Part shown: piece after piece, positions 3,875-35,831 of the stretch
How the letters are laid out: every line of letters starts with the position of its first letter
Position numbering within the stretch: position 1 is the first letter of the stretch
IMG/VR virus record: IMGVR_UViG_2579778674_000006
Coordinates: 1 to 43,605 of that record
Strand: one strand, 5' to 3'
Length of the DNA: 43,605 nucleotides
Origin: a virus
Taxonomy: Duplodnaviria; Heunggongvirae; Uroviricota; Caudoviricetes
Program-made: the position numbers and the translations under genes
Notes under the pieces: generated by a model
Told to the model about the DNA's origin: nothing
What the model saw: only the letters and a program-made list of their open reading frames with translations
The model's database searches: none

Positions 3875-4522
3875 TCAGCGACCAATCACCACAACCTGAC
3901 CACCATCCCCTTCGTCTGCCGTGCTGATCTCCTGAGAGACCACCCGCGACCCCACGCGCATTTCACCGTACAGAACGGGCAGAACATTGCCCTGGGCAAC
4001 CATGTTATCCAGTGAGGAGAAATAGGTGTTCTGTTTGCCGTTATCTGTACTTGCTGCCGTGGGCGTCCTGGCTTTCGGTGCCAGCATCTGCGCCACTCCG
4101 CCCAGGATCATACTGGCCCCTGCCGCATACATGCCCGATACAGCCGCGGCACCCAGCCAGCCCACAGGGTTCCACCATGCCACCGCAATCAGCGCCGCCC
4201 CCAGCACCACCTGAAACACACCGCCACTTTTAGCTCCCGCCAGACGCGGCACGATGTGGATCACGGCACCATTTGCCAGCGGCTCATTAAGACGGGCAGA
4301 CAATTCGGTTTCACCTGCATCACGCCCGGCAATGCGTACCTGGTACCAGCCGTCGCTCAGTTTCTGACGAAATGCCGGGATCTGCATGGCCAGCGCCCGG
4401 ATGGCTTCGGACCCCGTTTTCACTCGAAGGTCGATGCGGCGGCCAAATCGTTGTAAATCCCCGTAAAGGCAGATGCGTGCCATGCCCGGTGACGCCAGAG
4501 GGAGTGTGTGCGTCGCTGCCAT
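3875..4522 (-). CDS. I: Tail assembly protein I
   Basis: 215-aa ORF, MAATHTLPLASPGMARICLYGDLQRFGRRIDLRVKTG..., matches lambda gpI as I recall it; follows K and precedes J. Confidence 0.9.
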   Translation of the reverse strand: MAATHTLPLASPGMARICLYGDLQRFGRRIDLRVKTGSEAIRALAMQIPAFRQKLSDGWYQVRIAGRDAGETELSARLNEPLANGAVIHIVPRLAGAKSGGVFQVVLGAALIAVAWWNPVGWLGAAAVSGMYAAGASMILGGVAQMLAPKARTPTAASTDNGKQNTYFSSLDNMVAQGNVLPVLYGEMRVGSRVVSQEISTADEGDGGQVVVIGR

Positions 4523-5163
4523 TTGTCGGTGTACCTCTCTCGTTTGCTCAGTTGTTCAGGAATATGGTGCAGCAGCTCGCCATCACCACAGTAAATGGCG
4601 GCATGATTCGGCACCGATGAACCAAAACAGCACAGCAGCACATCGCCCGGTTGTGCTGATGACAACGGCACCTGATACAGCCCTGTGGCCTCCAGATTAT
4701 CCAGATAGAGATTCTGACCGTGACGCCACCAGTCATCCTCGCGATGAAAATCCGGCATCTCAATCCCCGCCAGATGGTAAGCGTCCCGGAACAGCGTGTA
4801 ACAGTCCGTCACCCCGTGCTCAAAGCGCCGCCCGGTGAGATGCGGCACACAGCGGAACTTATGAATCGCCCCGCGGCAGACCAGCCACCACGGCAAATCA
4901 CTCTGCACCTGCAACCGCCGGTCGGCCTCACTCAGCCAGGGCAGACCACCGGGGTGGCTGTGAACCAGCGCCACAATCTCACCCTGCATCTCTGCCTGCA
5001 GCCAGTCCTCCGGAGCCATCCGGAAATACTCCTCCGGCTCACCGGAAATATTCACGCAGGGAAAATATCTTTCCCCCTCCGGCGTTCTCACCACGAAGCC
5101 GCACGACTCCGCTGGCGCACATCGCCGGGCGTGCGCCAGAATCGCTGATTCTGTCTCTGTCAT
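4420..5163 (-). CDS. K: Tail assembly protein K (JAB/MPN plus NlpC/P60 domains)
   Basis: 247-aa ORF with an HSHPGG JAMM-like motif and a C-terminal Cys/His peptidase-like region (DCYTLFRDAYHLAG); overlaps I by ~100 bp as in lambda. Confidence 0.85.
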   Translation of the reverse strand: MTETESAILAHARRCAPAESCGFVVRTPEGERYFPCVNISGEPEEYFRMAPEDWLQAEMQGEIVALVHSHPGGLPWLSEADRRLQVQSDLPWWLVCRGAIHKFRCVPHLTGRRFEHGVTDCYTLFRDAYHLAGIEMPDFHREDDWWRHGQNLYLDNLEATGLYQVPLSSAQPGDVLLCCFGSSVPNHAAIYCGDGELLHHIPEQLSKRERYTDKWQRRTHSLWRHRAWHASAFTGIYNDLAAASTFE

Positions 5164-5168
5164 GGGAT

Positions 5169-5867
5169 TTACTGCGAAAGTTTGTTAATGGAAAGGAAGC
5201 CGCCAAAGTTGCCGACGTTATTGCGGAACTTGCAACCACTCAGGCATTTGCTGCACTTATCCTTCGTGATATCGGACGTTGGCTGGTCATATTCATCCGC
5301 GACCGCCGGGCCATCATAACCGCACTCATCACCGCGATAGGTCCAGGTGCAGGTGTTGGCCAGCATGATACGTCCCGGAAAAACAGCGCCATCCGTTTCC
5401 GTCGGCGTGGACAGTACAAAGGAGGCACTCACCGCGCTCAGTTCGCTGCACTGCTCGATGCGCCAGCGGCTGATCACCTCCTGCTCCGGATCGGCGTCAC
5501 TGTTTCCGTTGACGAAGTTCACCGCATCCAGAAAACGGGCGTAAACCTTACGCCGGACCACCGTTCCGCCGACCAGACTCTGCAGATCTTCCGCCATCCC
5601 GGTGACCATGCCGTACAGATTAGAGACTTTAAGCGTTGGCCTTGCACTGGCTCCTTTGCCGTTCATCTCAAATCCGCTTCCCTGAATGGGATAAGCCTGA
5701 TACTGCCGCCCCTGCCAGGTGACTGGTTCACCTTTTTCGTTCTGCTCATTACAGAAGAAATAACGATCTCCGCCGACCTCTGTCAGATCAATTTCCCAGA
5801 GCACGACCAGCGCGGATTGCTCCGTTTTAGTGCACTCATTGAGTGTTTCCTGCTGTATATCCTGCAT
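5169..5867 (-). CDS. L: Minor tail protein L
   Basis: 232-aa ORF, MQDIQQETLNECTKTEQSALVVLWEIDLTEVGG..., lambda gpL-like, between M and K. Confidence 0.9.
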   Translation of the reverse strand: MQDIQQETLNECTKTEQSALVVLWEIDLTEVGGDRYFFCNEQNEKGEPVTWQGRQYQAYPIQGSGFEMNGKGASARPTLKVSNLYGMVTGMAEDLQSLVGGTVVRRKVYARFLDAVNFVNGNSDADPEQEVISRWRIEQCSELSAVSASFVLSTPTETDGAVFPGRIMLANTCTWTYRGDECGYDGPAVADEYDQPTSDITKDKCSKCLSGCKFRNNVGNFGGFLSINKLSQ

Positions 5868-6223
5868 CAGTGAGTGACCTCTTCAAAGGTACAGTTAAAA
5901 TCGGTATACATGGCATTATCCGAAATGCTCCACTCCCTGCAGACAACCCGGACAGTCCTGTTGTGTTTTGGCGGACGCCACAAAAAAGCACGAATCCCGG
6001 CATGACGGGATAAAAAACTGTCCAGCGCGGCACGGGAATATTCATCTGTGACACGAAATACCGGTTTAAACGTTTTCAGATCCGCATTCAGACCACCAGC
6101 CCGTCGCTGTTCATATCCGTCACCAAACTTTACCGTAATAACTGATGGCTTTCGTGTCGTCTCCATCCCCTCACGGGGGATCCAGTTAAAAACTTCAGGC
6201 TCAGGCACTGTACAATCCTCCAT
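5867..6223 (-). CDS. M: Minor tail protein M
   Basis: ORF 5867..6253; likely start at the internal Met (MEDCTV...) at 6223 overlapping the H stop; contains the VKFGDGYEQRRAGGLNADLKT motif typical of gpM. Confidence 0.8.
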   Translation of the reverse strand: MEDCTVPEPEVFNWIPREGMETTRKPSVITVKFGDGYEQRRAGGLNADLKTFKPVFRVTDEYSRAALDSFLSRHAGIRAFLWRPPKHNRTVRVVCREWSISDNAMYTDFNCTFEEVTH

Positions 6224-9200
6224 CCCGACGCGATGACTGCATAATTGACACAACCCTGCTGTCGATCAGATCCACCAGTCCCCTGGCTGAGCGCGCATCT
6301 ATCTCGCCATTGCTCCCTTGATTCTGAATGCTGATGTGATACACGGGAGAATAAACAAATCCACCGCCACCATTCACATTTCCAATGGCCCTGACCCCAA
6401 GAGAGCCGTCCGCTGCCCGTGTCAGTGGCATGATTGCTTCAGGCCCGGCCTCGCCCATCAACCCGGCACCTTTCGCAAAAGCAAAATACGTCGGTGTATC
6501 CACAATAGTGTTACTGTAAGCACTCAGATTTGCCGATGTGTAAACACCACCTTTTGCGTTTGCCACTGCCCCCGAAATCCATCCGCCGACCGTACCAAGC
6601 CACCCTCCGGCACCGGAGAGTGATTTCAGTCCGTTAACAATGGCTGCATTCATCAGAATTTTTGAAACTTCCCGGAGAACTGAACTCCCCCAGTTCCTCC
6701 AGTCCACAACATTCCCGGCCAGTGCATCGGAAATATTTGATACCAGCCCGTCCATCGTGGAAACGACAGCATCTGCCGCCTGTGAAGCATAATCGGTGGC
6801 ACTGTCTGCCCAGTTGGTCAGTCCCTCCTGGAGTCCGGCATTCCAGTTATTACGTAAAGCATCGGCCTTTGCATAATAATCCTGCTGATCGCTGAGACGC
6901 TCTTCCAGATATTTTTTATTCAGTTCTTTCTCCTGTTTCCACAGGGCTTCTTCAATTTCTCCGGCCTGATACTGTCTCAGCAGCTCGTTATTTTTCTGCT
7001 CAAACGCCTGCCGGATACTCCACATTTCCTGGAGTCGTTCACGCATCCGTGAACCTTCACCATATCCCAGCAACTGCGCTTCGTCAGATGCCCGGGCACT
7101 GGCATTACTGTCCGCCAGACTGCTCTCATACGCAGCAAGCTGCTCACGAATCTTTTTCTGGTCGATGAGTGCTGCATTCTGCAAAAGCGTTTTTTTCTGC
7201 GCTTCTGACAGGGTTGATAATTCGCCCTGACTGACCTGATATTTCATCTTAGCCAGTTCAGTATTCTGCCCTGCCAGTGCTATTTGTTCTTTTTGCTGTT
7301 TAATCAGCCGTTTATAAATATCTTCTGTTTTTTCCGCTTCGGTCTTTTTATGCGCTTTGGGTTTATTTGCCTGGTTATTTCGCCAAGCATCCAGTGAGTT
7401 ATTGATATAATTCTGTCTGGCTGTCTGATACGCCTCTCCCACAAAGCCGAGATCATCCGCAGCATAACCCAGGCGGGCACGCTCACGGGCTTCCCCCTTC
7501 AGGCGGGACAGAGCCAGTTCGCGCTCGCTGTTATTCAGTGCGGTCTGCTGTTTATCATCCAGGGTTGCCTGTGGTAGCCGTAACGGTACATTCACCAGCC
7601 CCTGTCGCTGCTGAAGTAATTCATTACCGAGCCCGAGAAGGCGATTAAACTCGGTATGCTGCCCATTCATGATCAACAGGGACTGATACGCTTTGTTTTG
7701 TTCCGCGGCCTGTTGACGGATCAACGCCACCCGTCGCTCCTCCAGCCCGGCAAGCACATCCTGAATGGATTGCGCTTTGCCCTGCATTTGTGTGAGACGG
7801 GACTGTTCAACTGCCAGTTGATTTGTTGCTTCTGCAAGCCCTTCTGTGACAGTTTTTACCGACGTCATGTGGTTAATCATAAAACCGTTATCGGTTGTCC
7901 AGCCCGGGTTTGCCAGCACATACTGATAGCCAGCAATTTTTTCCTGTAAGGATTTAATCTTACTTTTCTGCTCGTCAATTAACCTGTTTTGCTCATCAAG
8001 TGCCTGCCGCGTCTTTTCCTCATTATCTGACGCTTCAGGAAGCGACATTGCCGACGTTTTCTGGCGAATTTCGTCGATTGTTGCGGCATACTGGCGTGCA
8101 GATTCTCTGGCCTGCTCCTGATTCTGATACATCGTGTACCAGGCCGTCGCCCCCAGCATGACGAGTCCCGGCACACCACCAACCAACCCCAGCGCACCAC
8201 TTAACAGACGACTCCCCACTGACGTGACAGTATTCAGCGTTGTCTGTGCAGCTGTTCTGGCCGCAATATTACGGGTAAGTGACGCCTGGGCAGCTGTCAG
8301 CTTCGCTTCTGCTGCGGCCTGCCTTTCGGTACCGCGAGCAGCAACAACCGCCTGTTGCGCACGATAAACCGCCGCACGCGCCCTAGCGGTTGCTATCTGT
8401 GTCCCCCGAAGTTGCACTTCAGCAAGAGCCACTTCGTTTCTGGCTGCAGTAATTAATCCGGCAGTTGCAGATCCAGCAGACGACGCCATATTGCCAAAAT
8501 ATCGGGCTACCCCGACGGCAACCAGTGCGCCAGCTGCAGCAGCCACGGTATCAATATTGTCTGCAACACCATTCAACACCCCGGTGAGTGTCTTTGTCAC
8601 TCCGCTTGCCTCGTTCGCACCACCAACCCAGGCCATAAAGGCGTTTTCAACTTTGGTTGCAGAGGATGAAACAGTATCAGGCATTGCTGCATATTCATCA
8701 CGCAACGCCCCAAGCTGACTAATCAGTGCAGGAACAACCTTATCGGCGGTCAGTTTTCCGTTATCCGCCATGGCCTTCAGATCCTTACGGGCAACACCCA
8801 TTCCCGCAGCCAGCGCACGAATAACACGATCGCCGTTCTCATTCACAGAGTTAAATTCTTCACCGCGCAGCACTCCCTGCGCCAGTGCCTGACTGAACTG
8901 CGTGATCACCGAACTGGCTTCTGCTGTACTGGCACCGGATAATTTCAGGCCCGTGGAGATCGCCTCGGTGACTTTCAGTACCTCCTCAGAACTGTAGCCA
9001 TACTCCCGCATGGAAGCTGCAGAGCGGGCAAAAAGGCTGGCGTTATCAGAAAACGCCGTTCCCGTTCTCTGGCTGATTGCCATTAATTCACGTTGTGATA
9101 CCTGAAAATCATCACTGGACTGTGAAGCCTGCTTCAGACGGGCATTTACTGAATTCCACTCATCGGCGAGAGAAATAAGATGACCGGTAGCAAAAGCTCC

Positions 9201-18286: not shown

Positions 18287-18637
18287 TCAATTGATGCGTT
18301 CGCGCGCTGTTTTTGCTTTATGACAGGGCCAGCACAGACTCTGCAGGTTACTGTCTGCATCCGTGCCACCATGAGCTTTCGGAATGATGTGGTCCACAGT
18401 TCTGGCTTCAACGGCTCTCCCATTGCGCAGGCAGTTCTGACACAGATGATTATCACGCTTCAGTATGCGCGCACGTATGGCATCCCATTTCGAGCCATAG
18501 CCACGCTGGTGGCGGCTCAGTCCGCGTTGATGCTGTACCCATCCTTCGCCACGATGTTTATCGCAGTAACCAGAACTGTCTGTGGTTGTACCTGCACATC
18601 CACGCTTACGGCAGGCGCGTGGGATTAGTGCTGGCAT
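18287..18637 (-). CDS. HNH endonuclease (packaging-associated)
   Basis: 116-aa ORF with Cys-rich ends and a HIIPKAHGGTDADSNLQSLCWPCH motif; immediately upstream of terminase small. Confidence 0.85.
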   Translation of the reverse strand: MPALIPRACRKRGCAGTTTDSSGYCDKHRGEGWVQHQRGLSRHQRGYGSKWDAIRARILKRDNHLCQNCLRNGRAVEARTVDHIIPKAHGGTDADSNLQSLCWPCHKAKTARERIN

Positions 18638-18775
18638 GTTTCGCCCTTATATAAATCAAAGGTGACCTGCATTGAGTATCTCCATGGAATAGATTTGCTG
18701 CTGATATGAGACAGATCAATAGACTTCATGAGCCAACGGGTGTAGATATTACTTTTTACTTCAGAGGGTTAACTC

Positions 18776-19315
18776 ATGGATATTAAAGATAAAATCAATA
18801 CCATTTTGTTATGTGACATTGCCATCCACCTAGGTATCGAAACTGATATTGATCCACAGCTTGTTAAATATGCTGTGTCATCTGGTAATGATTGGGTTAT
18901 CAAGGCCGAATATTCACATTTGGATGTTGACGAACCAAGTAAAGAAGATCGTGATTTTGTTACTGCTGTCTTGAATATGTATCGCGGACTTTCCAATGCT
19001 TTCAGGAAACTTAGTGATGACGAGCAAAAAGAATTAGTCCGTGACCATCATCTAAAAATACATGATGGGGCAATTCAGCTCCCAGGTTTCGACGGTAATA
19101 ATGAATGCGATTACTTCAGTATCATTGAGGCATATCAGAAAATTGATCGCTTCCCCGAACAGAAACAGCCCATTGCCAATACTCATTCACGTACAGAACA
19201 TCTCTATAACGCAATGCTTGATGAGTTTAAGAAAATTGACGCTGTAAATCGAAGCTGGGATTTATCGAAGGAAGAACTGGCATCCATTCTTTCCACAGCT
19301 CCACGCAGTTTCTAA
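18776..19315 (+). CDS. YfbU-family (UPF0304-like) protein, moron on the opposite strand
   Basis: 179-aa ORF, AT-rich, RBS AGAGGG before ATG; several motifs align with my recollection of E. coli YfbU (MY..L, LPGFD, THxxxxxxxY..ML). Confidence 0.55.
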   Translation: MDIKDKINTILLCDIAIHLGIETDIDPQLVKYAVSSGNDWVIKAEYSHLDVDEPSKEDRDFVTAVLNMYRGLSNAFRKLSDDEQKELVRDHHLKIHDGAIQLPGFDGNNECDYFSIIEAYQKIDRFPEQKQPIANTHSRTEHLYNAMLDEFKKIDAVNRSWDLSKEELASILSTAPRSF

Positions 19316-19320
19316 GTGCT

Positions 19321-19587
19321 TTAGGCGGGTTTCCAACCCGCCTTATTATGCTCGTATATAGAGAAGGAAGCACCCAAATTAACCAGCGCGGATTTCTTTT
19401 CCTCAATACGGCTGTTAAGTTCAGCAACTGCATGCGGGCGTATGGCCTCAAGAAAAGCACTATATTGATAGGCAGACTGGATTGTCACACCAAGCCCTGC
19501 ACCACTTTCCAGTATACCTTTCTGTCGCTGTAGCTCTTTCATCTCGTTATAGATGTAATGTGCGTTACTTAGGTTTTCTACGTTCAC
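19321..19587 (-). CDS. Hypothetical protein convergent with the YfbU-like gene
   Basis: 88-aa ORF, AT-rich, no recognisable family. Confidence 0.45.
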   Translation of the reverse strand: MNVENLSNAHYIYNEMKELQRQKGILESGAGLGVTIQSAYQYSAFLEAIRPHAVAELNSRIEEKKSALVNLGASFSIYEHNKAGWKPA

Positions 19588-19742
19588 GCCCTAAGTTCTT
19601 CCTGCAGTTAGCCTGCACTGATTTGTTATGCGCCAATATGTCCCGCTTCGTCTGTTGCATTATCATAAGTAATAGCGTAGGTTGACACCTTGGCTCTCTT
19701 TCGCCACCGGCGAATCTTTAGCGGATTATCCTTGGCCGGTTT

Positions 19743-20225
19743 TTATCTGAGACATTGCTCACGAATGTATAGCTGTGCCCCTTCCAGTTGCTTCTGCATC
19801 GTCATCAACCGTTCTCTGAGGGTGAAATAATCCCGTTCAGCGGTGTCTGCCAGTCTGGGGCTGGTTGCATTATCCACGCTGGTGGGTCCGGTGGCTTCAC
19901 GCACGGCTGCGGAGCAACTGGCATTGACCCGCAGGCGCTTACGACCAGCGGCAACATCAGCGCGCAGAGTTTCATTTTCAGCTTTCGCATTGGCTAATTC
20001 TCTCGAGTACTTTGCATCGAGCGCAGCAACATCACGCTGACGCTGCTGCATGTCAGCGATGGTGGCGGTCAGCTGCTTCAGCTCACTGACTTTTTTATCA
20101 CGCTGTTCTTTGTAGGTGATGGCGTTATCACGGTAATGATTGACCGCCCACGACAGGCAGACGATGATGCAGATAACCAGAGCATAAATAATCGCGGCGA
20201 CTCTGCTCACTGATCTATTCCCCAA
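19743..20225 (-). CDS. Rz: Spanin inner-membrane subunit Rz
   Basis: 160-aa ORF with N-terminal TM ([20 protein letters not shown]) and coiled-coil; downstream of the endolysin. Confidence 0.85.
19805..19990 (-). CDS. Rz1: Spanin outer-membrane lipoprotein Rz1, embedded in Rz
   Basis: 61-aa ORF in the +1 frame inside Rz, lipobox LVVSAC, Pro-rich. Confidence 0.8.
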
Positions 20226-21665: not shown

Positions 21666-21740
<75 letters not shown>

Positions 21741-21743
21741 CAT

Positions 21744-21820
<77 letters not shown>

Positions 21821-21821
21821 A

Positions 21822-21898
21822 CTGGACCGCCACCGGGGACTCGAACCTCGCACACTCAACTTAAAGGGTTGACGCTCTTTCCTGATGAACTGGTGACG
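21822..21898 (-). tRNA. tRNA-like gene, anticodon UUU if the loop is read canonically (Lys?), with unusual C33
   Basis: 77-nt cloverleaf, acceptor CCGTCAC/GTGGCGG with one G-U pair, anticodon loop CCUUUAA, T-loop TTCGAGT, CCA end; one T-stem mismatch. Confidence 0.5.
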
Positions 21899-21899
21899 G

Positions 21900-21975
21900 T
21901 TGGTGGCCCTTGCTGGATTTGAACCAGCGACCTGGCGATTATGAGTCGCTCGCTCTCACCACTGAGCTAAAGGGC
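21900..21975 (-). tRNA. tRNA with CAU anticodon (Met or lysidine Ile2, ileX-like)
   Basis: 76-nt cloverleaf, perfect acceptor GGCCCTT/AAGGGCC, anticodon loop CUCAUAA, T-loop TTCAAAT, CCA end. Confidence 0.8.
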
Positions 21976-22093
21976 CGGGCGCAGGATAATAACGTTACGA
22001 AATCAATGTTGCAAGCATTCAAAAATCACCTGGTTAAAAATCACCCTTAGCTCCTCCACCAGCGCATTCACCATGTCTATCCGAGATAAGTGG

Positions 22094-25334: not shown

Positions 25335-25490
25335 TTACTCCTCAGGTTCGTAAGCTGTGAAGACAGTGACCTCCGTCTGGCCGGTTCGGATTCGTACCTC
25401 GCAGAGGTCTTTCCTCGTTACCAGTGCCGTCACAATGACGGTTAAACAGATGACGATCAGGGCGATTAACATCGCCTTTTGCTGCTTCAT
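25335..25490 (-). CDS. hok: Hok/Gef-family type I toxin; the in-frame upstream ORF to 25547 is a possible mok-like leader frame
   Basis: 51-aa product MKQQKAMLIALIVICLTVIVTALVTRKDLCEVRIRTGQTEVTVFTAYEPEE, near-identical to HokD/RelF as I recall it. Confidence 0.85.
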   Translation of the reverse strand: MKQQKAMLIALIVICLTVIVTALVTRKDLCEVRIRTGQTEVTVFTAYEPEE

Positions 25491-25743
25491 AGCCTGCTTC
25501 TCCTTGCCTTTCGGCACGTAAGAGGCTAACCTAGATTTGCCGTTCATAGATTGAGCCTCAGATTAATGTTAAGCGTCTTGCAGGACGCGTAATGTTAACT
25601 GGGGCTTTTCTCTATCTGCCTTTGGTGTTCATGCCTGAGGCAGATAGCCTCAAGCACCCGCAGCAATTCTACTTAAGTTAGATAAGCTTTTCTATGGTAT
25701 TCTCTCAGCGTCCCGTAAATACAGTCTCGGCTCATCATTTTTA

Positions 25744-26007
25744 TCACAGGTGCGAGGAAAATATATAGCGCCCTCCATCAAGCATAACGAAATACATTTT
25801 CCATTCATCGCCATTCCTCAATTTAATACGAAGACTTTCCCCGCAAGTGTATTTATTAAACAACTGTTCCGATGTGCTAGTAAGAGGTATTTTTACCGTT
25901 ATTACAACTACTGCCCCACCATTTAACTCTCGAAGTTCAGCATCCGCATCCACAAAAGATGAATAAATGTTATGATCTGGGTAATCAACAATTAACTGCA
26001 TATTCAC
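25744..26007 (-). CDS. Hypothetical small protein upstream of hok
   Basis: 87-aa ORF, AT-rich, no recognisable family. Confidence 0.45.
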   Translation of the reverse strand: MNMQLIVDYPDHNIYSSFVDADAELRELNGGAVVVITVKIPLTSTSEQLFNKYTCGESLRIKLRNGDEWKMYFVMLDGGRYIFSSHL

Positions 26008-26140
26008 TCCTTAAATATAGCAACTAAAACAAACAACGATTTAACAGTAGGAATTGTTTTTATAACATATGAACGGTGCAAGATCTATCCAGATGAAGCC
26101 TCCCCTCACACCCCCCGTCTCATTACATGCATTTACTATC

Positions 26141-26656
26141 TCACCGTAAAACATCCTCCACGCTTATCAGTCCGTTTCGCTTCAGGTAGTCCATCGCCTT
26201 CTCCGGTAATTTGCAGTCCGGCTTGGCTTTTTTCAGTTGGCTGACCAGTCGTTTAACCCACATTGTTAATTCGCTAACCTGATTGCCGGAAGCTGGTGGG
26301 TTGTCGGCTTTACCCAGAATGACAGCACTGCAGGCCTCTTTGAGTACCCAATCAACAGCATCTTTCCATGCTCCTGTTTCGACTGGTGGATTCTCACGCT
26401 TTACCTGTTCATAAAAGCGCACGGCTTTAACCAGTCCTTCTGATGTCAGTGGCACAGGCGGGGCAGTGAATAACGCCTGAATTTCATAGCTCGGCCTGTC
26501 GTTGCAATCCTCTTTTGTCGGTACATATTTCCAGTCACCAACCCACGGCTCCCCCTGTGAGTCCGTAATGCCTTTTTTCACGTAGCGATATCGCCATGCA
26601 ACTGGTTTTGCCTGCCCTGCCGTTTCATGTCCTTCCTGATAATTAATCTCGCTCAT
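26141..26656 (-). CDS. Hypothetical phage protein (nin-region)
   Basis: 171-aa ORF with 4-bp overlap to the next gene. Confidence 0.55.
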   Translation of the reverse strand: MSEINYQEGHETAGQAKPVAWRYRYVKKGITDSQGEPWVGDWKYVPTKEDCNDRPSYEIQALFTAPPVPLTSEGLVKAVRFYEQVKRENPPVETGAWKDAVDWVLKEACSAVILGKADNPPASGNQVSELTMWVKRLVSQLKKAKPDCKLPEKAMDYLKRNGLISVEDVLR

Positions 26657-26847
26657 TCATCGCCCCACTCATCACAATATGCTTTGACCGGAGTTTTTCC
26701 TGCTTCGTAGTCATAACGCCATGCTTCAGCATCAGCGGCACTTCCACCGCGTAACTCTGCATAGTCCATTAACAGTTCATGCCATTCTTCAAAACTGACG
26801 TTGTATTTAGTTGAACCAAAATCAGCCATTTTGTTCTTCCTCCTCAT
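26653..26847 (-). CDS. Small hypothetical phage protein
   Basis: 64-aa ORF in a translationally coupled series. Confidence 0.45.
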   Translation of the reverse strand: MRRKNKMADFGSTKYNVSFEEWHELLMDYAELRGGSAADAEAWRYDYEAGKTPVKAYCDEWGDE

Positions 26848-27004
26848 CTTTTATTTCGTGATATGAGTAATTGCAGTAGTTAAAGAAAATTTCTTTTGCT
26901 TCGTCCTGTATTTCATCTGGTGTCGCACCATCATCCACTTCGAATACATCCTCAAAATCTCCACCAGCTATTCCCGTTTCAATAATTATTCTGAACTTTC
27001 GCAT
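26822..27004 (-). CDS. Small acidic hypothetical phage protein
   Basis: 60-aa ORF, acidic C-terminus. Confidence 0.4.
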   Translation of the reverse strand: MRKFRIIIETGIAGGDFEDVFEVDDGATPDEIQDEAKEIFFNYCNYSYHEIKDEEEEQNG

Positions 27005-27099
27005 TTCATTACCGCCCTTTCGGGCGGCCTCCTGATGTTCTGAGGGTGCAGAAATCCCTCCGGTTAAGGATTAAATTTTATTTACAACACTAAATTTAA

Positions 27100-27300
27100 T
27101 TATTCAGGCGCGCGAATCTGTTCCGCACAATGCAACAATGCTTCTGTCACTTCCTTAAGCGTTACGGTATCGGCATCATCCAGTCCTGCAACTTTTGCGT
27201 GCCTGGCAAACGCCGCGCAAAGGTCGTTAAACGCCACCGCCCGTACATCAGCTAGGAAAGCGTTAGCAGCAGCCAATTCCTGGTAGTCAATCCTGCTCAC
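27100..27300 (-). CDS. Small hypothetical phage protein
   Basis: 66-aa ORF, 4-bp overlap with the upstream gene. Confidence 0.45.
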   Translation of the reverse strand: MSRIDYQELAAANAFLADVRAVAFNDLCAAFARHAKVAGLDDADTVTLKEVTEALLHCAEQIRAPE

Positions 27301-27719
27301 TGCGCCGCCTCCTGAAAATTCCCCTGATAGAAAGCCAGTACACGCTGCATAACTTCACTATTCCGGCACTCGCGACAGATTATGTTCAGACGCCTGTCAT
27401 AGCGGCGTATTTCTCCATCAGGTAATGACCAGATAAGGTCCGGATCAACCGCAGATGGTTTCTTCAGCTTTGCCCTTGAGAGCTTTTTACGGGCATTTTG
27501 CCAGTCCTTACGCGCCTGTTCAGACGGGAATAACCCGTAACCAGAGTTGTATACATCGCCACTGGCAACCAGCTCTCTGGCCAGAACGTTCATCAGATAT
27601 CTTGTTGCCCCAGTTTTAGTTTCCAGTTGTCTTAACGTCTCGCGCCCACTCTGGCGTACGAGTTCAACAACCTGCCCTTTAATTTTTTCCCGCTCTTCTT
27701 GTGTAAAAACTTTTGCCAC
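27297..27719 (-). CDS. Hypothetical protein downstream of the replication initiator
   Basis: 140-aa ORF with a CRECRN Cys pair; occupies the helicase-loader position but is too small for DnaC/P. Confidence 0.5.
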   Translation of the reverse strand: MAKVFTQEEREKIKGQVVELVRQSGRETLRQLETKTGATRYLMNVLARELVASGDVYNSGYGLFPSEQARKDWQNARKKLSRAKLKKPSAVDPDLIWSLPDGEIRRYDRRLNIICRECRNSEVMQRVLAFYQGNFQEAAQ

Positions 27720-29339: not shown

Positions 29340-29604
29340 GAATCAAGCTCCTAGAAAGTGGTTGTGTTAACGTTTTGGTATCTTCCAGCTCGGGCCAAAT
29401 ATTCATCCAATCAAAAGGCCTTAGTTGCTGACGTGTAACTTCACCATTACTGGCTCGCTCAATAAGGACACATAACGATGCCCCTAACACTTGACCTTTA
29501 CTCAATGCCTTTCTTAGATAACCGATGCTGGTACCACACTCGCATGCAAACATACGCTGTTCATCTGACGAAAGAGAATTGAGAAATATTCTTAATTCTT
29601 CCAT
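29323..29604 (-). CDS. Cro-like HTH regulator (YdaS-like)
   Basis: 93-aa ORF divergent from the repressor; HTH-like segment QRMFACECGTSIGYLRKALSKGQ. Confidence 0.6.
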   Translation of the reverse strand: MEELRIFLNSLSSDEQRMFACECGTSIGYLRKALSKGQVLGASLCVLIERASNGEVTRQQLRPFDWMNIWPELEDTKTLTQPLSRSLIHENQA

Positions 29605-29632
29605 AGCTACTCCTTAGTAAACACAGTAAAGA

Positions 29633-29709
29633 ATACCCGCAGGTAAACAAAAGTCAATACCCACAGGTTGTTTACCTTGCGGTGATCGCATCTATTATTT
29701 ACCTATGGA
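29633..29709. promoter_or_regulatory. Candidate operator region between repressor and cro-like gene
   Basis: tacccgcaggta (29633-29644), tacccacaggtt (29657-29668) and tacctatggac (29698-29709, overlapping the repressor ATG); also inverted ggtaaacaa / ttgtttacc. Confidence 0.5.
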
Positions 29710-30124
29710 CAAATATGAATTTAGACGACAGCAACTCATCAAAATTCGTGATGAGAAATGCGATGGTAAAGCGGTTAACGTGGCCAGAAAGATCGGGCGC
29801 GAGCCTTCTTATGTATCAAGAATGTTGTACCCAGAGGGGAAAAAGGGAAAAAAACGGATCGCTGATGATATGGTGGAGATTATCGAAGAGTCCTTTGGGT
29901 TACCCCGGGGATGGATGGATGGTATCGTTTCATCATCAACGAACACAGCCTCCAGTTATGAAACAAGGGTTCTAACGCCACGACAACGTATTTTTTTAGA
30001 TCTCTTAGACGAACTGCCAGAAAGTGAAGCGGATAACTTATTAAAAACTCTTGAAGAGAAAAAACAGTATTACAATATGATCTACGAAGAAATCCGTAAA
30101 AAGAAAGCACAAAACGCATCATAG
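29705..30124 (+). CDS. Prophage repressor (RacR-like)
   Basis: 139-aa ORF divergent from the cro-like gene; N-terminal HTH-like region (VARKIGREPSYVSRML). Confidence 0.65.
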   Translation: MDKYEFRRQQLIKIRDEKCDGKAVNVARKIGREPSYVSRMLYPEGKKGKKRIADDMVEIIEESFGLPRGWMDGIVSSSTNTASSYETRVLTPRQRIFLDLLDELPESEADNLLKTLEEKKQYYNMIYEEIRKKKAQNAS

Positions 30125-30166
30125 CTCACCAAACAACTAGTCACCAGTTAAGACACCGCAAAAAGT

Positions 30167-30203
30167 TACCCATGGGTATTTACTTTTTAAATACCTATGG
30201 GTA
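30167..30203. promoter_or_regulatory. Candidate operator pair upstream of the leftward early operon
   Basis: Perfect palindrome tacccatgggta (30167-30178) and near-palindrome tacctatgggta (30192-30203), centres 25 bp apart. Confidence 0.5.
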
Positions 30204-30389
30204 TCCTTCTTTTCATACCAACCCACCCCGCCCCACAGAATGCAGGGCAATACTTCGAGTTACCAGGCAGTGGTCAGGGGTTAAGTAGCCAGCCCGAGGC
30301 GTAAGAACATGACGGCAGGGTTCAACTTTAATAACTATGCAGCAGGTTTTTGTTCCGCTACCCCGGCGTTAAGGGGAAATGAGGTCAGC

Positions 30390-30545
30390 ATGGATACTAT
30401 CGATCTTGGCAACAACGAATCTCTGGTGTACGGCGTGTTTCCCAACCAGGACGGCACGTTCACCGCGATGACGTATACCAAAAGCAAAACGTTTAAAACC
30501 GAAAATGGTGCCCGTCGCTGGCTGGAAAGAAACTCAGGTGAGTGA
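30390..30545 (+). CDS. Small early protein
   Basis: ORF 30309..30545; likely start at ATG 30390 after the RBS GAGGT (MDTIDLGNNESLVYGVFPNQDGTFTAMTYTK...). Confidence 0.5.
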   Translation: MDTIDLGNNESLVYGVFPNQDGTFTAMTYTKSKTFKTENGARRWLERNSGE

Positions 30546-30674
30546 TATGGATTTCGACACAATCATGGAAAAGGCTTACGAAGAATACTTCGAAGACCTT
30601 GCCGAAGGCGAAGAAGCTCTCAGCTTCAGTGAGTTTAAACAGGCGCTTTCCAGCTCGGCAAAATCTAACGGCTG
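30546..30674 (+). CDS. Small acidic protein (42 aa), translationally coupled
   Basis: ATG at 30546 directly follows the preceding stop (TGA 30543-30545); RBS AGGTGAG; MDFDTIMEKAYEEYFEDLAEGEEALSFSEFKQALSSSAKSNG; below the ORF-track size cutoff. Confidence 0.45.
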
Positions 30675-30704
30675 ATAAGCGAAGTAGCACCGCGAGGAAT
30701 CAGT

Positions 30705-30923
30705 ATGCAGAAACGAGAACCCGTCATAATCGCGCCAGACTATACCGATGATGAACTTTATGAGTGGATGCGCCAGAAAATTAATGCAGCGCAGGATCTG
30801 AAATGGGCTAATGAAGCCAGGGCTAAGCAGGCTGAAAATCTGTCCGCTCTGGAGCAGGATATCACCAATCTGGAAAAAGCAGCGGCATTAAGCATTGCCA
30901 GAATGATTACATACCCGCGTTAA
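30705..30923 (+). CDS. Small early protein
   Basis: 72-aa ORF with RBS GAGGAA. Confidence 0.5.
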   Translation: MQKREPVIIAPDYTDDELYEWMRQKINAAQDLKWANEARAKQAENLSALEQDITNLEKAAALSIARMITYPR

Positions 30924-30924
30924 T

Positions 30925-31490
30925 AGCTAACCAACGAAGCTAAGGTTGGTAATTAAGGAGTTCTCCACGGGTGAGGTGGAGTGCGTGCGCCGGACACGGG
31001 TGAGCATCCGGCACTGACAGTTTACTGAAAGGATATTTCCCTGAAAAGTCAGACCATAACGCGAAAGCGCACGGCGAGGTAGCTGGTTCATAGATAGCCT
31101 GTCGTTAAATTTTCGTCGACCGTGCGCTTCCGGTTGTGGCACTCCGCGAAATGGCGCGGCGGTAAGTATGGCGGGGTTATTCCTTCCCCGTTGAGGACAC
31201 CGGGTTGTCAGGTTGACCATACGCTTAAGTGACAACCCCGCTGCAACGCCCTCTGTTATCAATTTTCTGGTGACGTTTGGCGGTATCAGTTTTACTCCGT
31301 GACTGCTCTGCCGCCCTTTTTAAAGTGAATTTTGTGATGCGGTGAATGCGGCTAAGCGCACGCGGAACAGTTAAAACCAAAAACAGTGTTATGGGTGGAT
31401 TCTCTGTATCCGGCGTTAATTGTTAACTGGTTAACGTCACCTGGAGGCACCAGGCACCGCATCACAAAACTCATTGTTGAGGGCGCGATA
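30925..31490. other. ORF-free, GC-rich, self-complementary segment: candidate structured RNA or regulatory region
   Basis: No credible ORF on either strand; several mutually complementary segments (gccgga/tccggc, cgtgcgc/gcgcacg, ggagtgc/gcactcc, ggttgtca/tgacaacc). Confidence 0.4.
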
Positions 31491-31679
31491 ATGAAAACGT
31501 TATTACCAAACGTTAATACGTCTGAAGGTTGTTTTGAAATTGGTGTCACTATCAGTAATCCTGTATTTACTGAAGATGCCATTAACAAAAGAAAACACGA
31601 ACGGGAGTTATTAAATAAAGTATGCATTGTTTCAATGCTGGCCCGTTTACGTCTGATGCCAAAAGGATGTGCACAATGA
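31491..31679 (+). CDS. Small early protein (62 aa)
   Basis: Start inside ORF 31386..31679 at MKTLLPNVNTSEGCFEIG...; its stop overlaps the next start (ATGA). Confidence 0.55.
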   Translation: MKTLLPNVNTSEGCFEIGVTISNPVFTEDAINKRKHERELLNKVCIVSMLARLRLMPKGCAQ

Positions 31680-31867
31680 ATCCAGTATTTGCACTTATTC
31701 TGACGGTTTTTCTTGTTTCCGGAGAGCCAGTTGATATTGCAGTCAGTGTTCACAGAACAAAGCAGGAATGTATGGCAGCAGCAACCGAACAGAAAATTCC
31801 AGGCAACTGTTATCCGGTCGATAAAGTTATTCACCAGGATAATAACGAAATCCCGGCAGGATTTTAA
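31676..31867 (+). CDS. Small early protein (63 aa) with N-terminal hydrophobic segment
   Basis: Start inside ORF 31622..31867 at MNPVFALILTVFLVSGEPV...; translationally coupled to the upstream gene. Confidence 0.55.
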   Translation: MNPVFALILTVFLVSGEPVDIAVSVHRTKQECMAAATEQKIPGNCYPVDKVIHQDNNEIPAGF

Positions 31868-31960: not shown

Positions 31961-34402
31961 ATGAGCACTGATAAAGAAGAATTTGCACTATATTGCGAAG
32001 CAAAAAATGACAAAGTAAGAAAACGCCTGGGAATTAAAGGTGGTTTTTACTGGACTACAGCAAAAAAATTATCTGTTGCAATCTCCCGCTGCATTACCGC
32101 AATGGATGACAACGATTATGATGAAGACGACTTTAAAAAACCCGTCCGCGTCAATTTGCCCGTTGTTGACGACCTTCCGCCAGAAGGCGTGTTTGATACT
32201 GAATTCTGCAACCGCTATGAAAAAGGCGGGAAAGATGGCATCACAATGACATTTATCGGCCCTTCCCCCTCTGTTCAGGACAAACCAGCCAGCACTGACA
32301 ATACCAACATCAACGGCGAAGACATGACTGAGATTGAGGAGAGCATGCTTCTGCCTGTCTCCGGTCAGGAACTGCCCATTCGTTGGCTTGCTCAACACGG
32401 CAGCGAAAAACCAGTAACGCACGTTTCACGCGACGAACTCCAGGCATTACACATTGCACGGGCTGAAGAACTACCGGCTGTTACTGCCCTGGCTATTTCG
32501 CATAAAACCAGTCTGCTCGACTCGCTGGAGATTCGCGACCTCCACAAACTGGTTCGTGACACTGACAAAGTTTTCCCTAATCCTGGTAATTCAGACCTGG
32601 GACTAATAACTGCTTTTTTCGAAGCATACCTGGACGCTGACTACACTGATCGGGGTCTGCTGACAAAAGAGTGGATGAAAGGAAATCGTGTTTCACGCAT
32701 CACCCGCACGGCTTCCGGTGCTAATGCTGGCGGTGGGAACAAAACCGATCGCAATCCGAATTTAGTACACACCCTCGACACACTGGATGTGGAGATTGCA
32801 GCAGCCACACTTCCGATGGATTTTAATATTTATGAAATTCCGGGCAGCGTTTATCGTCGCGCAAAAGAAGTAGTCCTGAACAAAGAAAGTCCGTTCAAAG
32901 AATGGTCCGCAGCACTTCGTGCAACCCCGGGTATTCTGGACTATTCCCGCGCCGCTATTTTTGCACTTATCCGAAGCGCACACCCTGAATTTTATCACTA
33001 CCCGGGACGCCTTCAGGGGTATATCAACGCCTATTTGACGGAAACTGATCACGAGAACCCCAGCAAGGAAACTCTCACAGCTGCCCGGCATACGCCGGAA
33101 AAAGATATCCTGGAAGAAATTAACCGCGAGGTGGTTACTGAGCGTGAAACAGAAGAAGAAAAACCACAACCATCTGACGCAATGGCAGGTGAACAGGCAA
33201 CAACTGAAACAATGGAACCGGATACAACTGAACATGGCCAGAACGCGCAGTCGCTGGATGCTCAGTCGCAGGTGAGTTCCGCTAACCAAGTAAAAGTCAC
33301 CGCTGACGAAGTAAACAAAATTATGCAGGCAGCCAATATCAGCCAGCCTGACGCCGATAAGTTACTTGCTGTATCGCGTGGTGAATTTGTTGAGGGGATT
33401 AGCGACCCTAATGATCCGAAATGGGTCAAGGGGATCCAGACTCGCGATTCTGTGAACCAGAACCAGCATGAATCGGAACGGAACGACCAAAAAGCGGAAC
33501 AAAACAGCCCAAATGCGTTACAAAACGAGCCAGAAACGAAACAATCCGAACCAGTAGCGCAACAGGAACCGGAAAAAGTCTGCACCGCCTGCGGTCAGAG
33601 CGGTGGCGGCAACTGCCCTGATTGTGGCGCGGTGATGGGCGACGCAACATACCAGGAAACATTCGATGAAGAGAATCAGGTTGAAGTTCAGGAAAATGAT
33701 CCGGAGGAAATGGAAGGCGCTGAACATCCACACAAGGAGAACCCTGGCGGCAATCAGCATCACGCCAGCGATAATAAAACTGGCGAGACGGCAGATCACT
33801 CAATTAAGGTGAACGGTCATCACGAAATCACATCCACCAGCAGGACGTGTGACCATCTAATGATCGACCTTGAAACCATGGGAAAAAATCCTGATGCCCC
33901 GATCATCTCAATAGGTGCAATATTTTTCGATCCGCAAACCGGAGATATGGGACCGGAATTTAGTAAGACTATCGATCTGGAAACTGCTGGCGGAGTCATT
34001 GATCGGGACACCATTAAATGGTGGCTTAAGCAATCACGCGAAGCGCAATCTGCCATTATGACCGATGAAATCCCGTTAGATGATGCACTGTTACAATTGC
34101 GGGAATTTATCGACGAAAACTCCGGTGAATTTTTTGTTCAGGTCTGGGGAAATGGAGCCAACTTCGACAACACGATTTTGCGCCGTTCATACGAACGGCA
34201 GGGGATCCCCTGCCCGTGGCGTTACTACAACGATCGCGATGTACGCACAATCGTTGAGCTGGGGAAAGCCATAGACTTCGATGCCAGAACGGCTATTCCA
34301 TTCGAAGGTGAGCGCCATAATGCACTTGATGACGCTCGTTACCAGGCAAAATACGTTTCAGCTATCTGGCAAAAACTGATCCCGAATCAGGCTGATTTTT
34401 AA
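31961..34402 (+). CDS. RecE-like exonuclease fusion with C-terminal DnaQ-like (DEDDh) 3'-5' exonuclease domain
   Basis: 813-aa ORF; N-terminal region resembles the Rac RecE N-terminus as I recall it; acidic linker; zinc-ribbon-like CTACG...CPDCG; C-terminus carries [12 protein letters not shown] and HNALDDARY motifs. Confidence 0.75.
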
Positions 34403-34460: not shown

Positions 34461-34664
34461 ATGAGCAGCTTATTTTTAACCGAAGATGAATTGCTAATAT
34501 TAACGGGCTGCAAATATGCAAGCCACCAGCGAAAATGGTTAATGGAAAACGGGCTTCCGTTCTATACCAATCGTAGTGGCAAACCGATTGTCAGCCGGGA
34601 TCTATTTACCTGCAATAAAACTTTACCACCACGCGAGGTAGAGCCGAATTTTGGTGCGATCTGA
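34461..34664 (+). CDS. xis: Excisionase-like protein
   Basis: 67-aa ORF immediately upstream of and overlapping the integrase start. Confidence 0.6.
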   Translation: MSSLFLTEDELLILTGCKYASHQRKWLMENGLPFYTNRSGKPIVSRDLFTCNKTLPPREVEPNFGAI

Positions 34665-35689
34665 TGGGAAGACGAAGGAAAAATCCTGAACACGAAAAAT
34701 TACCTCCAAATGTATACCCAAATAAATATAGTTATGTATGGAAACCAACATCCAGAGAATCTGTCACACTAACCGCCATCAAGGATGGTTTAGCTGCTTT
34801 ATGGAAAAAGTATGAGGAAACTGTAAATAATCGCGATCGTGCAATGACATTCGGTCGCTTGTGGGAAAAATTCCTCGCCAGCGCCTATTACAGTGACCTT
34901 AGTCCAAGAACACAAAAAGATTATCTGCAACATCAAAAAAAGTTGCTTGCCGTATTCGGTAAGGTACCAGCGGATTCCATAAAACCAGAACACATCCGTC
35001 GATACATGGACAAAAGAGGGGAGCAGAGTAAAACGCAAGCCAACCATGAAAAAAGCAGTATGTCCCGTGTTTACAGTTGGGGGTATGAGCGAGGGTACGT
35101 GAAGGCTAACCCATGTGCAGGTGTAAGTAAATTCAAGGCCAAAAACCGCGAACGATATGTAACCGACAAAGAATACCAGGCAGTATTAAGCGTTGCACCT
35201 CTTCCTGTTTTTATCGCAATGGAAATTGCCTATCTGTGTGCAGCGAGGGTTTCCGATGTGTTATCGCTGAAATGGGAACAGATTGGAAACGACGGGATAT
35301 TCATCCAGCAAGGGAAAACCGGAAAAAAACAGATAAAAGCATGGAGTCCACGATTACAGGCAGCGATCGAAAAAGCAAAACAGTTACCAAAATCTGCCTA
35401 TGTGATCAGCAATCAATACGGCAACCGATATATGTACAAAGGCTTTAACGAAATGTGGGTAGATGCAAGAAATCGTGCTGGAAAAATTTCAGGTATTTTA
35501 ACCGACTTCACCTTTCATGATCTGAAGGCGAAAGGAATTTCAGACTATGAAGGAAGCAGCCGGGATAAGCAACTTTTCTCTGGTCACAAAACCGAAGGGC
35601 AAGTGCTAATCTATGACAGGAAGGTTAAAGTTTCACCAACACTTGATGTCCCGTTACCTGAAAATATTCCAAGAAAATATTCCAAGTAA
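34664..35689 (+). CDS. int: Tyrosine integrase
   Basis: 341-aa ORF with C-terminal catalytic-type motifs (FTFHDLKAKGIS ... LIYDRK); adjacent to the tRNA-Ser 3' end. Confidence 0.9.
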   Translation: MGRRRKNPEHEKLPPNVYPNKYSYVWKPTSRESVTLTAIKDGLAALWKKYEETVNNRDRAMTFGRLWEKFLASAYYSDLSPRTQKDYLQHQKKLLAVFGKVPADSIKPEHIRRYMDKRGEQSKTQANHEKSSMSRVYSWGYERGYVKANPCAGVSKFKAKNRERYVTDKEYQAVLSVAPLPVFIAMEIAYLCAARVSDVLSLKWEQIGNDGIFIQQGKTGKKQIKAWSPRLQAAIEKAKQLPKSAYVISNQYGNRYMYKGFNEMWVDARNRAGKISGILTDFTFHDLKAKGISDYEGSSRDKQLFSGHKTEGQVLIYDRKVKVSPTLDVPLPENIPRKYSK

Positions 35690-35741: not shown

Positions 35742-35831
35742 TGGCGGAGAGAGGGGGATTTGAACCCCCGGTGGAGTTGCCCCCACTCCGGTTTTCGAGA
35801 CCGGTCCGTTCAGCCGCTCCGGCATCTCTCC
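35742..35831 (-). tRNA. serU: tRNA-Ser (anticodon CGA), serU-like; prophage attachment site at its 3' end
   Basis: 90-nt class II tRNA GGAGAGATGCCGGAGCGGCTGAACGGACCGGTCTCGAAAACCGG...GGGGGTTCAAATCCCCCTCTCTCCGCCA. Confidence 0.9.

Follow-up and report, generated by a model that had tools for sequence, protein, structure and literature searches.

A RecE-type N-terminal region joined to a DexA-family DEDDh exonuclease domain in a lambdoid prophage without a recognisable recombinase partner

Introduction

RecE, the exonuclease VIII of the Rac prophage, contains a large N-terminal part whose function is still listed as unknown, yet which improves linear-linear recombineering. The part of RecE that works together with RecT is reportedly its C-terminal domain, a finding that goes back to Muyrers et al. 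in 2000. In this study, we describe a gene on the plus strand of a 43,605-nucleotide stretch of tailed-phage DNA (IMG/VR record IMGVR_UViG_2579778674_000006, positions 1 to 43,605), referred to below as the window, that encodes an 813-amino-acid protein in which a RecE-type N-terminal region is followed by a DEDDh exonuclease domain related to DexA of phage T4. The protein touches on two small questions, namely the role of the RecE N-terminus and the role of the DnaQ-type nucleases encoded next to int in lambda-like phages that have no recombination module.

Several related systems have been described. RecE-like proteins that lack the nuclease domain are known, and in lambdoid phages DnaQ-type nuclease genes have been reported near int, outside the recombination (Rec) modules (Zheng, Casjens, Davidson, Amundsen, Smith, Genome Res 2025, PMC12315714). 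The same authors defined a 'no Rec module, high Chi' class by the presence of at least 8 Chi sites in the active orientation and no more than 6 in the other; this class is typified by phage LLS, and RecBCD enhances LLS growth (PMC12315714). T4 DexA functions in the scavenging of DNA and in intron homing, which is a form of double-strand-break repair, and EcD, a stand-alone E. coli homologue of DexA ('HREX', Kang et al. 2025), digested T4 DNA containing 5-hydroxymethylcytosine (5hmC) in vitro and, when plasmid-borne, protected cells from T4 (PMC12153337). Finally, the TONDO proteins, ISG20-like DEDDh exonucleases that carry variable auxiliary domains and are encoded in prophages, block the phages MS2 and Qbeta (PMC13344964).

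Results

A DEDDh domain takes the place of the RecE nuclease domain

The open reading frame (ORF) at 31961..34402 (+) begins with an ATG and encodes 813 amino acids followed by a stop codon. The protein is 100% identical to WP_021579310.1 of E. coli KV7, which is annotated as 'exonuclease'. It is a chimera, with a DexA-family DEDDh domain in place of the RecE nuclease domain, and we have high confidence in this identification. On the N-terminal side, the Pfam profile PF06630 (Exonuc_VIII) matched residues 57-189 with an E-value of 1.7e-35 (123 bits against a cutoff of 25), and residues 1-615 aligned to positions 1-602 of the 877 positions of NF007259, the NCBIfam equivalog model for exodeoxyribonuclease VIII. 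The NF007259 score of 942.7 bits stays below the curated cutoff of 1269, the threshold for a RecE equivalog. Using BLASTP, residues 58-615 were found to match residues 50-591 of K-12 RecE with 59% identity, and beyond RecE residue 591 there was no significant BLASTP match of the 813-residue protein to K-12 RecE. Because the alignment ends at this residue, we judge the RecE nuclease domain to be absent. The end point of the homology, residue 615 (nt 33805), is situated just ahead of where the nuclease domain of RecE begins.

What follows is a complete exonuclease domain of another type. Residues 632-803 (33854..34369, +) matched PF16473, the Rv2179c-like 3'-5' exoribonuclease family, over profile positions 2-177 of 177 with an E-value of 7.1e-68 (228.2 bits against a cutoff of 27), while the match to the generic PF00929 RNase_T profile was under threshold (21.7 versus 24 bits). 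The three motifs are DLET at residue 636, WGNGANFD at 729 and HNALDDARY at 786, and the five catalytic residues D636, E638, D736, H786 and D791 were invariant across 25 homologues that are 58-88% identical. An AlphaFold2 (AF2) model of residues 616-813 gave a predicted local distance difference test (pLDDT) score of 85 and a predicted template modelling (pTM) score of 0.82. When this model was searched against the Protein Data Bank (PDB) with Foldseek, the top matches were four chains of T4 DexA (8KEL/8KEN) with E-values of about 1e-10 (3.4e-11 for 8KEL) and a template modelling (TM) score of 0.72, and the matches ranked after DexA were RNase T and then the oligoribonucleases Orn/REXO2. The sequence search agreed with this, since the sole PDB match found by phmmer at E <= 0.01 was T4 DexA (8KEL, E 1.9e-6). 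From this family membership, the polarity of the enzyme is predicted to be opposite to that of RecE.

Three further residues of DexA were considered. At the position of D90, the window protein has an Asp (in PLDDAL), which phmmer aligned to 8KEL with high posterior probability. The equivalent of W152 is a Tyr, with a moderate posterior probability, in a column that varies between Y, C, H, V, W and R in relatives. D169 of DexA, which like W152 takes part in the recognition of 5hmC, is located beyond the stretch that could be aligned to the window domain.

Between the two ends of the protein lies a long, acidic connecting region. The first linker, residues 401-540 (33161..33580, +), has a net charge of -13 over residues 401-537, is predicted to be disordered at residues 400-450 (pLDDT < 50), and holds a conserved motif common to RecE and the YdfE-type exonucleases discussed below, among which is the exonuclease of phage Tritos. 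It is followed by a CxxC-(7)-CxxC zinc-ribbon-like element (C541/C544/C552/C555; 33581..33625, +), consisting of CTAC at residue 541 and CPDC at residue 552, which is near-identical in K-12 RecE (residues 516-530). The Pfam DZR profile matched this element weakly (E 0.096), and the element is predicted to bind metal. A second acidic linker, residues 556-631 (33626..33853, +), again with a net charge of -13 (residues 561-630), contains the domain-swap junction where the BLASTP alignment to RecE ends. A Chi site is located at 33834-33841 (-), approximately 30 nt past nt 33805 and thus at this junction, which may be a coincidence.

The N-terminal region proper, residues 1-400 (31961..33160, +), is folded and non-catalytic. 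In the AlphaFold model of this region (pLDDT 79.6, pTM 0.38), three confident blocks can be distinguished: an alpha/beta block at residues 1-100, and two helical blocks at residues 120-250 and 260-400.

These results confirm the structural features that had been proposed from the sequence alone. The original prediction described a long acidic linker, a CxxC...CxxC element and a DEDDh domain with three DnaQ-like motifs, and all three are present as described above; the DEDD fold, for which domain searches and structure prediction of the C-terminus had been proposed as a check, is present as well. A RecE-like N-terminus of about 450 residues was also proposed, and while the RecE type is supported by Pfam, NCBIfam and BLASTP, the extent has to be revised: since the homology runs to residue 615, the RecE-like part exceeds 450 residues and takes in the linker and the zinc-ribbon-like element.

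Heads and nucleases are combined in different ways

The gene is widespread. At least 80% of its length was covered in 1245 of 5426 complete E. coli genomes (megablast), many copies of the PF06630 plus PF16473 architecture are present in the protein database, and the NCBI annotation pipeline PGAP names the copies 'exonuclease' or '3'-5' exonuclease'. Relatives of the DEDDh domain occur in 1289 phage records, T4 dexA among them. The RecE-type N-terminus is a narrow family with 219 clusters (50% identity, E < 1e-3) among 1.84 billion. The 84 cluster representatives that have a RecE-type head and a length of at least 450 residues could be divided into 24 with the RecE nuclease, 14 with a DEDDh domain and 46 with neither; ten long representatives without either nuclease showed no additional Pfam domain. 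The catalytic pentad was retained in 12 of the 13 complete fused representatives, which are 53-99% identical. In the remaining one, P0255 (752 residues), the catalytic Glu is changed to Lys and the ExoII Asp to Ala, so that this protein may be a catalytically dead variant. Frameshifted copies of the gene are found in PPompW_14040 and vB_EcoM-606R7.

In a set of 80 IMG/VR loci, the DEDDh domain is 97-100% identical to that of the window protein. The linker and DEDDh domain form a cassette (94-100% identical) that carries a RecE-type head in 16 of these loci and a YdfE-type head in 61. The exonuclease of phage Tritos (823 residues; positions 4641-7109 of locus L005) is an example of the latter: its linker, zinc-ribbon-like element and DEDDh domain are approximately 97% identical to those of the window protein, and its first ~255 residues are unrelated to RecE. 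The pseudogene ydfE of the K-12 Qin prophage (b1577; positions 4079-4999 of locus L009), which is cut by IS2E, encodes 256 residues that are 99% identical to the N-terminus of the Tritos exonuclease; thus, K-12 ydfE is an IS2E-truncated remnant of the sibling exonuclease in the same slot. We also considered whether ydfE could be a truncated orthologue of the N-terminus of the window protein, and rejected this as there is no similarity between the two. Lastly, a stand-alone DEDDh version of 190 residues occupies the same slot, just ahead of xis-int, in phage LLS.

That the protein is common, is annotated as a 3'-5' exonuclease and belongs to a described phage class was known already. What is new here is that the linker and DEDDh cassette occurs with either a RecE-type or a YdfE-type head, and the DEDDh domain also alone, and that RecE-type heads pair with either type of nuclease. 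The presence of one head on nucleases of opposite polarity, and of one cassette on two unrelated heads, speaks for the head being an adaptor in its own right.

No recombinase partner and an oriented load of Chi sites

In K-12, recT directly follows recE. Downstream of the exonuclease gene in the window, we found no recT, ralR or rcbA. In the sizeable ORFs from the gene for Q, the late-gene antiterminator, to int, Pfam and PHROG searches detected no annealase, single-strand DNA-binding protein (SSB) or RecBCD inhibitor of the families known to those libraries. The recombination and replication genes that were recognised between Q and int encode RusA, a DUF968 protein, a replication initiator, YdaS/YdaT-like regulators and a Ren-like protein. 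Related loci gave the same picture: tblastn with K-12 queries on the flanks of the 80 loci detected RecT and the RecE nuclease domain in none, and a Pfam analysis of 110 clusters of flanking ORFs revealed no annealase among the best 25 of 77 families. The original prediction had pointed out that no RecT- or Bet-like annealase is encoded between the gene and xis/int, and this can be extended to the whole early region. The possibility of a missed annealase was rejected based on the Pfam and PHROG scans of the early region together with the tblastn searches on the related loci. The absence of a partner is therefore real, and a published frame for it already exists (PMC12315714).

The window contains 21 Chi sites (GCTGGTGG), against 1.7 expected from shuffled sequences, a roughly 12-fold excess. 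The prophage itself accounts for 19 of them, 14 on the minus strand and 5 on the plus strand, and these strand counts are lower bounds as the prophage is cut by the left edge of the window. In the usual orientation of the lambda map, with terminase on the left-hand side, the top strand corresponds to the minus strand of the window. The site at 33834..33841 (-) mentioned above is one of the 14 in the same orientation. Across the 80 related loci, the pattern search gave 200 Chi sites on one strand and 14 on the other. Given that there is no annealase, SSB or RecBCD inhibitor and that the Chi sites are oriented, the prophage, with no recognisable Rec genes and a Chi ratio of 14 to 5, fits the 'no Rec module, high Chi' class of lambdoid phages. 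Nine co-oriented Chi sites are located between the cos-proximal lysis/nin region and int, five of which lie within 20.3-24.3 kb.

Prophage context and operon structure

The window represents a lambdoid prophage integrated at a tRNA-Ser gene (35742-35831, -; ARAGORN), which marks the prophage end, beside mtfA. On the minus strand are the late genes, with head genes of the HK97 type and a tail like that of lambda. The plus strand carries the early-left operon, in the order repressor-like gene, DUF1391, ydfB, ydfC, DicF, dicB, DUF1482 (ydfD), exonuclease, xis (DUF4224) and int. Based on Pfam, Rfam and the KV7 annotation, the upstream early-left genes, DUF1391 (ydfA-like), ydfB-like, ydfC-like, DicF, dicB and DUF1482 (ydfD-like), occupy 30309..31867 (+), with the DicF small RNA at 31265-31316 (+; Rfam, 76.7 bits). 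DicF together with dicB and the ydfD-like DUF1482 gene (the latter two at 31386-31867, +) directly precedes the exonuclease gene, making this an operon of the Qin (dicB) type. A gap of 58 nt separates the exonuclease gene from the excisionase-like DUF4224 gene (xis; 34461-34664, +), which is followed by the tyrosine integrase gene (34664-35689, +), both assigned by Pfam and the KV7 annotation. The integrase ORF is intact here (341 residues), and its KV7 counterpart is annotated as frameshifted. The order dicB-ydfD-exo-xis-int, without an annealase, is also found in phages Tritos and mEp460_ev081 and in the prophage element PPompW.

No sigma-70-like promoter was found on the plus strand between 29699 and 34801; therefore, the exonuclease gene is most simply read as a member of the repressed early operon. 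Between the repressor-like gene (29705-30124) and the DUF1391 gene, a hairpin with a 16-bp stem and a T-run is present at 30167-30203 (+), which may be a terminator dividing the repressor transcript from the early-left operon.

Elsewhere in the prophage, a sok antitoxin RNA (25485-25659, -; Rfam, 111.7 bits) marks a hok/sok-type toxin-antitoxin locus in the nin region, where KV7 has hokD. Four tandem tRNA genes are located between Q and the lysis genes (21667-21976, -): Gly-tcc, Thr-tgt, Lys-ttt and one with a CAT anticodon, called Met by ARAGORN and Ile by PGAP in KV7. Apart from three window segments without a KV7 counterpart, the window and KV7 prophages are nearly identical. The first segment, 25676-27314, holds an ORF at 26141-26656 (phrog_660), and the corresponding KV7 stretch carries RES-domain and Lit exclusion genes. 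The second, 29344-30224, is the immunity region, and the third, 18637-19773, contains an ORF with a YfbU domain (18776-19315) on the opposite strand.

Discussion

The best overall explanation, in which we have moderate confidence, is that the RecE-N/DexA chimera is an accessory 3'-end exonuclease of a phage that relies on RecBCD and Chi. The protein would degrade nucleic acid, most probably DNA, from the 3' end in a Mg2+-dependent manner; DexA is its closest characterised relative by both sequence and fold, which makes DNA a likelier substrate than RNA. Expression would be limited to infection or induction, when the early-left operon is derepressed, and through the flexible linker the nuclease would stay attached to the binding target of the N-terminal module. 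The protein would not be one half of a two-component recombinase of the RecET type. The phage would depend on host RecBCD and RecA for recombination-dependent concatemer formation, as suggested by the lack of an annealase, SSB and RecBCD inhibitor in combination with the correctly oriented Chi load. The enzyme itself might then trim 3' ends or 3' flaps and contribute to nucleic-acid turnover, as T4 DexA does. It is because of the roles of DexA (PMC12153337) that accessory trimming or turnover during lytic growth is our best guess, and we put this part forward tentatively, as plausible though somewhat short of probable.

There are several points that weigh against this explanation. PF16473 is named after an exoribonuclease, so that RNA is a possible substrate, and the activity, polarity and substrate are predictions made from sequence and modelled fold. 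Moreover, 3'-5' DNA exonucleases usually inhibit homologous recombination, and DnaQ-type genes occur also in phages that possess Rec modules (PMC12315714), so that the link with a RecBCD/Chi lifestyle is a hypothesis. The frameshifted copies and the representative without two of the catalytic residues argue that the gene is dispensable. In addition, structure comparison of the N-terminal region yielded no informative relative, and the idea that this region is a targeting module is therefore a conjecture.

The main rival, which we consider unlikely, is a role in prophage defence or superinfection exclusion, whereby the nuclease would degrade the 5hmC DNA of incoming T-even phages or the 3' ends of RNA phages. 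The window protein is homologous to DexA, and its auxiliary modules at the N-terminus vary among relatives; EcD (PMC12153337) and the TONDO proteins (PMC13344964) provide precedents against T4 and RNA phages, respectively, and in relatives the same prophage region holds Lit and a RES-domain protein as defence cargo. However, the gene is located deep in a repressed early-left operon, has no promoter-like site of its own and does not resemble a moron-like cassette, and PADLOC gave no model match for the protein or for the four neighbouring unknown ORFs. The Asp equivalent to D90, which is needed for tetramer formation and the loss of which defines the 'dimer-only, 5hmC-only' EcD type, is kept, and the equivalent of the 5hmC-stacking W152 is a Tyr and variable among relatives. 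As to the precedents themselves, the TONDO proteins were selected as ISG20-like and shorter than 500 residues, and the EcD accession HAK9828821.1 was absent among the members listed for seven stand-alone clusters. Should the nuclease prove protective against T-even or RNA phages, another prophage-borne defence gene would be present in roughly one in four complete E. coli genomes.

We think it quite unlikely that the protein is a recombination exonuclease of reversed polarity, which would resect 3' ends and thereby expose 5' tails, or process ends for an annealase that was not recognised or for host RecA/RecFOR, with the head enhancing end-to-end recombination as in RecE. Although the N-terminal region and linker are common to RecE, and tightly packed DnaQ-type nuclease genes are found in some lambdoid Rec modules, e.g., that of epsilon34 (PMC12315714), there was no annealase in the window or the 80 related loci, and known annealases load on the 3' tails that result from 5'-3' resection. 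Furthermore, the RecE domain that cooperates with RecT is the one that is absent here, and the gene adjoins int instead of occupying the canonical Rec position in the middle of the operon (PMC12315714).

Very unlikely, in our estimation, is that the protein is an Rv2179c-like exoribonuclease active in phage development, with the 3' ends of RNA, for instance of host or phage transcripts or of small RNAs such as DicF, as its targets for trimming or degradation. The best Pfam family carries the name of the 3'-5' exoribonuclease Rv2179c of M. tuberculosis, RNase T and oligoribonuclease are the next structural neighbours after DexA, and DicF is encoded in the same operon. Nevertheless, the sole PDB sequence match is the DNA exonuclease DexA, with no Rv2179c chain at the same cutoff, the best fold match is DexA as well, and DNA is the substrate of EcD, the E. 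coli homologue that has been characterised. That the gene is without function, left over from an illegitimate recombination event that joined recE to a DexA-like gene and passively carried along, as the occasional frameshifted copies, the representative with the E to K and D to A changes in its active site and the IS-truncated K-12 sibling ydfE might suggest, is hardly credible in view of the intact 813-residue ORF, the catalytic pentad kept in fused representatives down to 53% identity, the 14 fused representatives at the 50% clustering level and the presence of the gene in sequenced phage genomes.

The accessory 3'-end exonuclease that we favour could be part of a more general scheme, to which we attach little probability. 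In this scheme, the RecE- and YdfE-type heads, with the linker and zinc-ribbon-like element, would be swappable targeting modules that deliver either a 5'-3' PD-(D/E)XK or a 3'-5' DEDDh nuclease to the same partner or DNA structure, and the DEDDh-bearing form would serve as a specialised helper of recombination-dependent replication by host RecBCD/RecA, for example in the trimming of 3' ends or flaps, in Rec-less, Chi-rich lambdoid phages. If true, this would amount to an unrecognised, annealase-independent phage recombination function, and the 'dispensable' N-terminus of RecE would gain a defined role. In any case, the natural domain swaps are ready chimeras for testing the RecE-type head and the int-proximal DnaQ-type nucleases.

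Comparison with known systems

EcD/HREX and the TONDO proteins are DEDDh exonucleases of enterobacteria, some of them with variable auxiliary domains and some in prophages. The Asp to Ala change at the D90 equivalent that sets EcD apart is not found in the window protein, and occurs in some of its stand-alone homologues. Unlike EcD/HREX and TONDO, the window gene has no independently expressed context resembling a defence island.

T4 DexA is the best match in the PDB by sequence and by structure, and shares the DEDDh fold and the five catalytic residues. The two domains are approximately 21-28% identical, and that of the window lacks the extra loops and helices of DexA (183 versus 227 residues). 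In contrast to DexA, the window protein has a 630-residue N-terminal extension and belongs to a temperate phage, which is not known to have 5hmC in its DNA.

RecE of the Rac prophage has an N-terminal region, acidic linker and CxxC...CxxC element homologous to those of the window protein, and its gene, like that of the window, is situated in the early-left operon of a Rac/Qin-type lambdoid prophage. The PD-(D/E)XK 5'-3' nuclease of RecE (~600-866), however, is missing from the window protein and has been replaced by a domain with the opposite expected polarity. The YdfE-type exonucleases (Tritos, mEp460_ev081, PPompW and K-12 ydfE) show the reverse situation: they occupy the same operon slot between ydfD and xis and have a cassette that is approximately 97% identical, whereas their first ~255 residues are unrelated to those of the window protein. 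Phage LLS, finally, resembles the window prophage in genome style, since LLS-type phages likewise lack an annealase, SSB and anti-RecBCD function and have many co-oriented Chi sites. Its 'DnaQ-like exonuclease' gp34 is 56% identical to the C-terminal domain of the window protein and is encoded at the same position, immediately upstream of xis-int; but gp34 is the bare domain of 190 residues, whereas in the window protein this domain is fused to a RecE-type head and linker.

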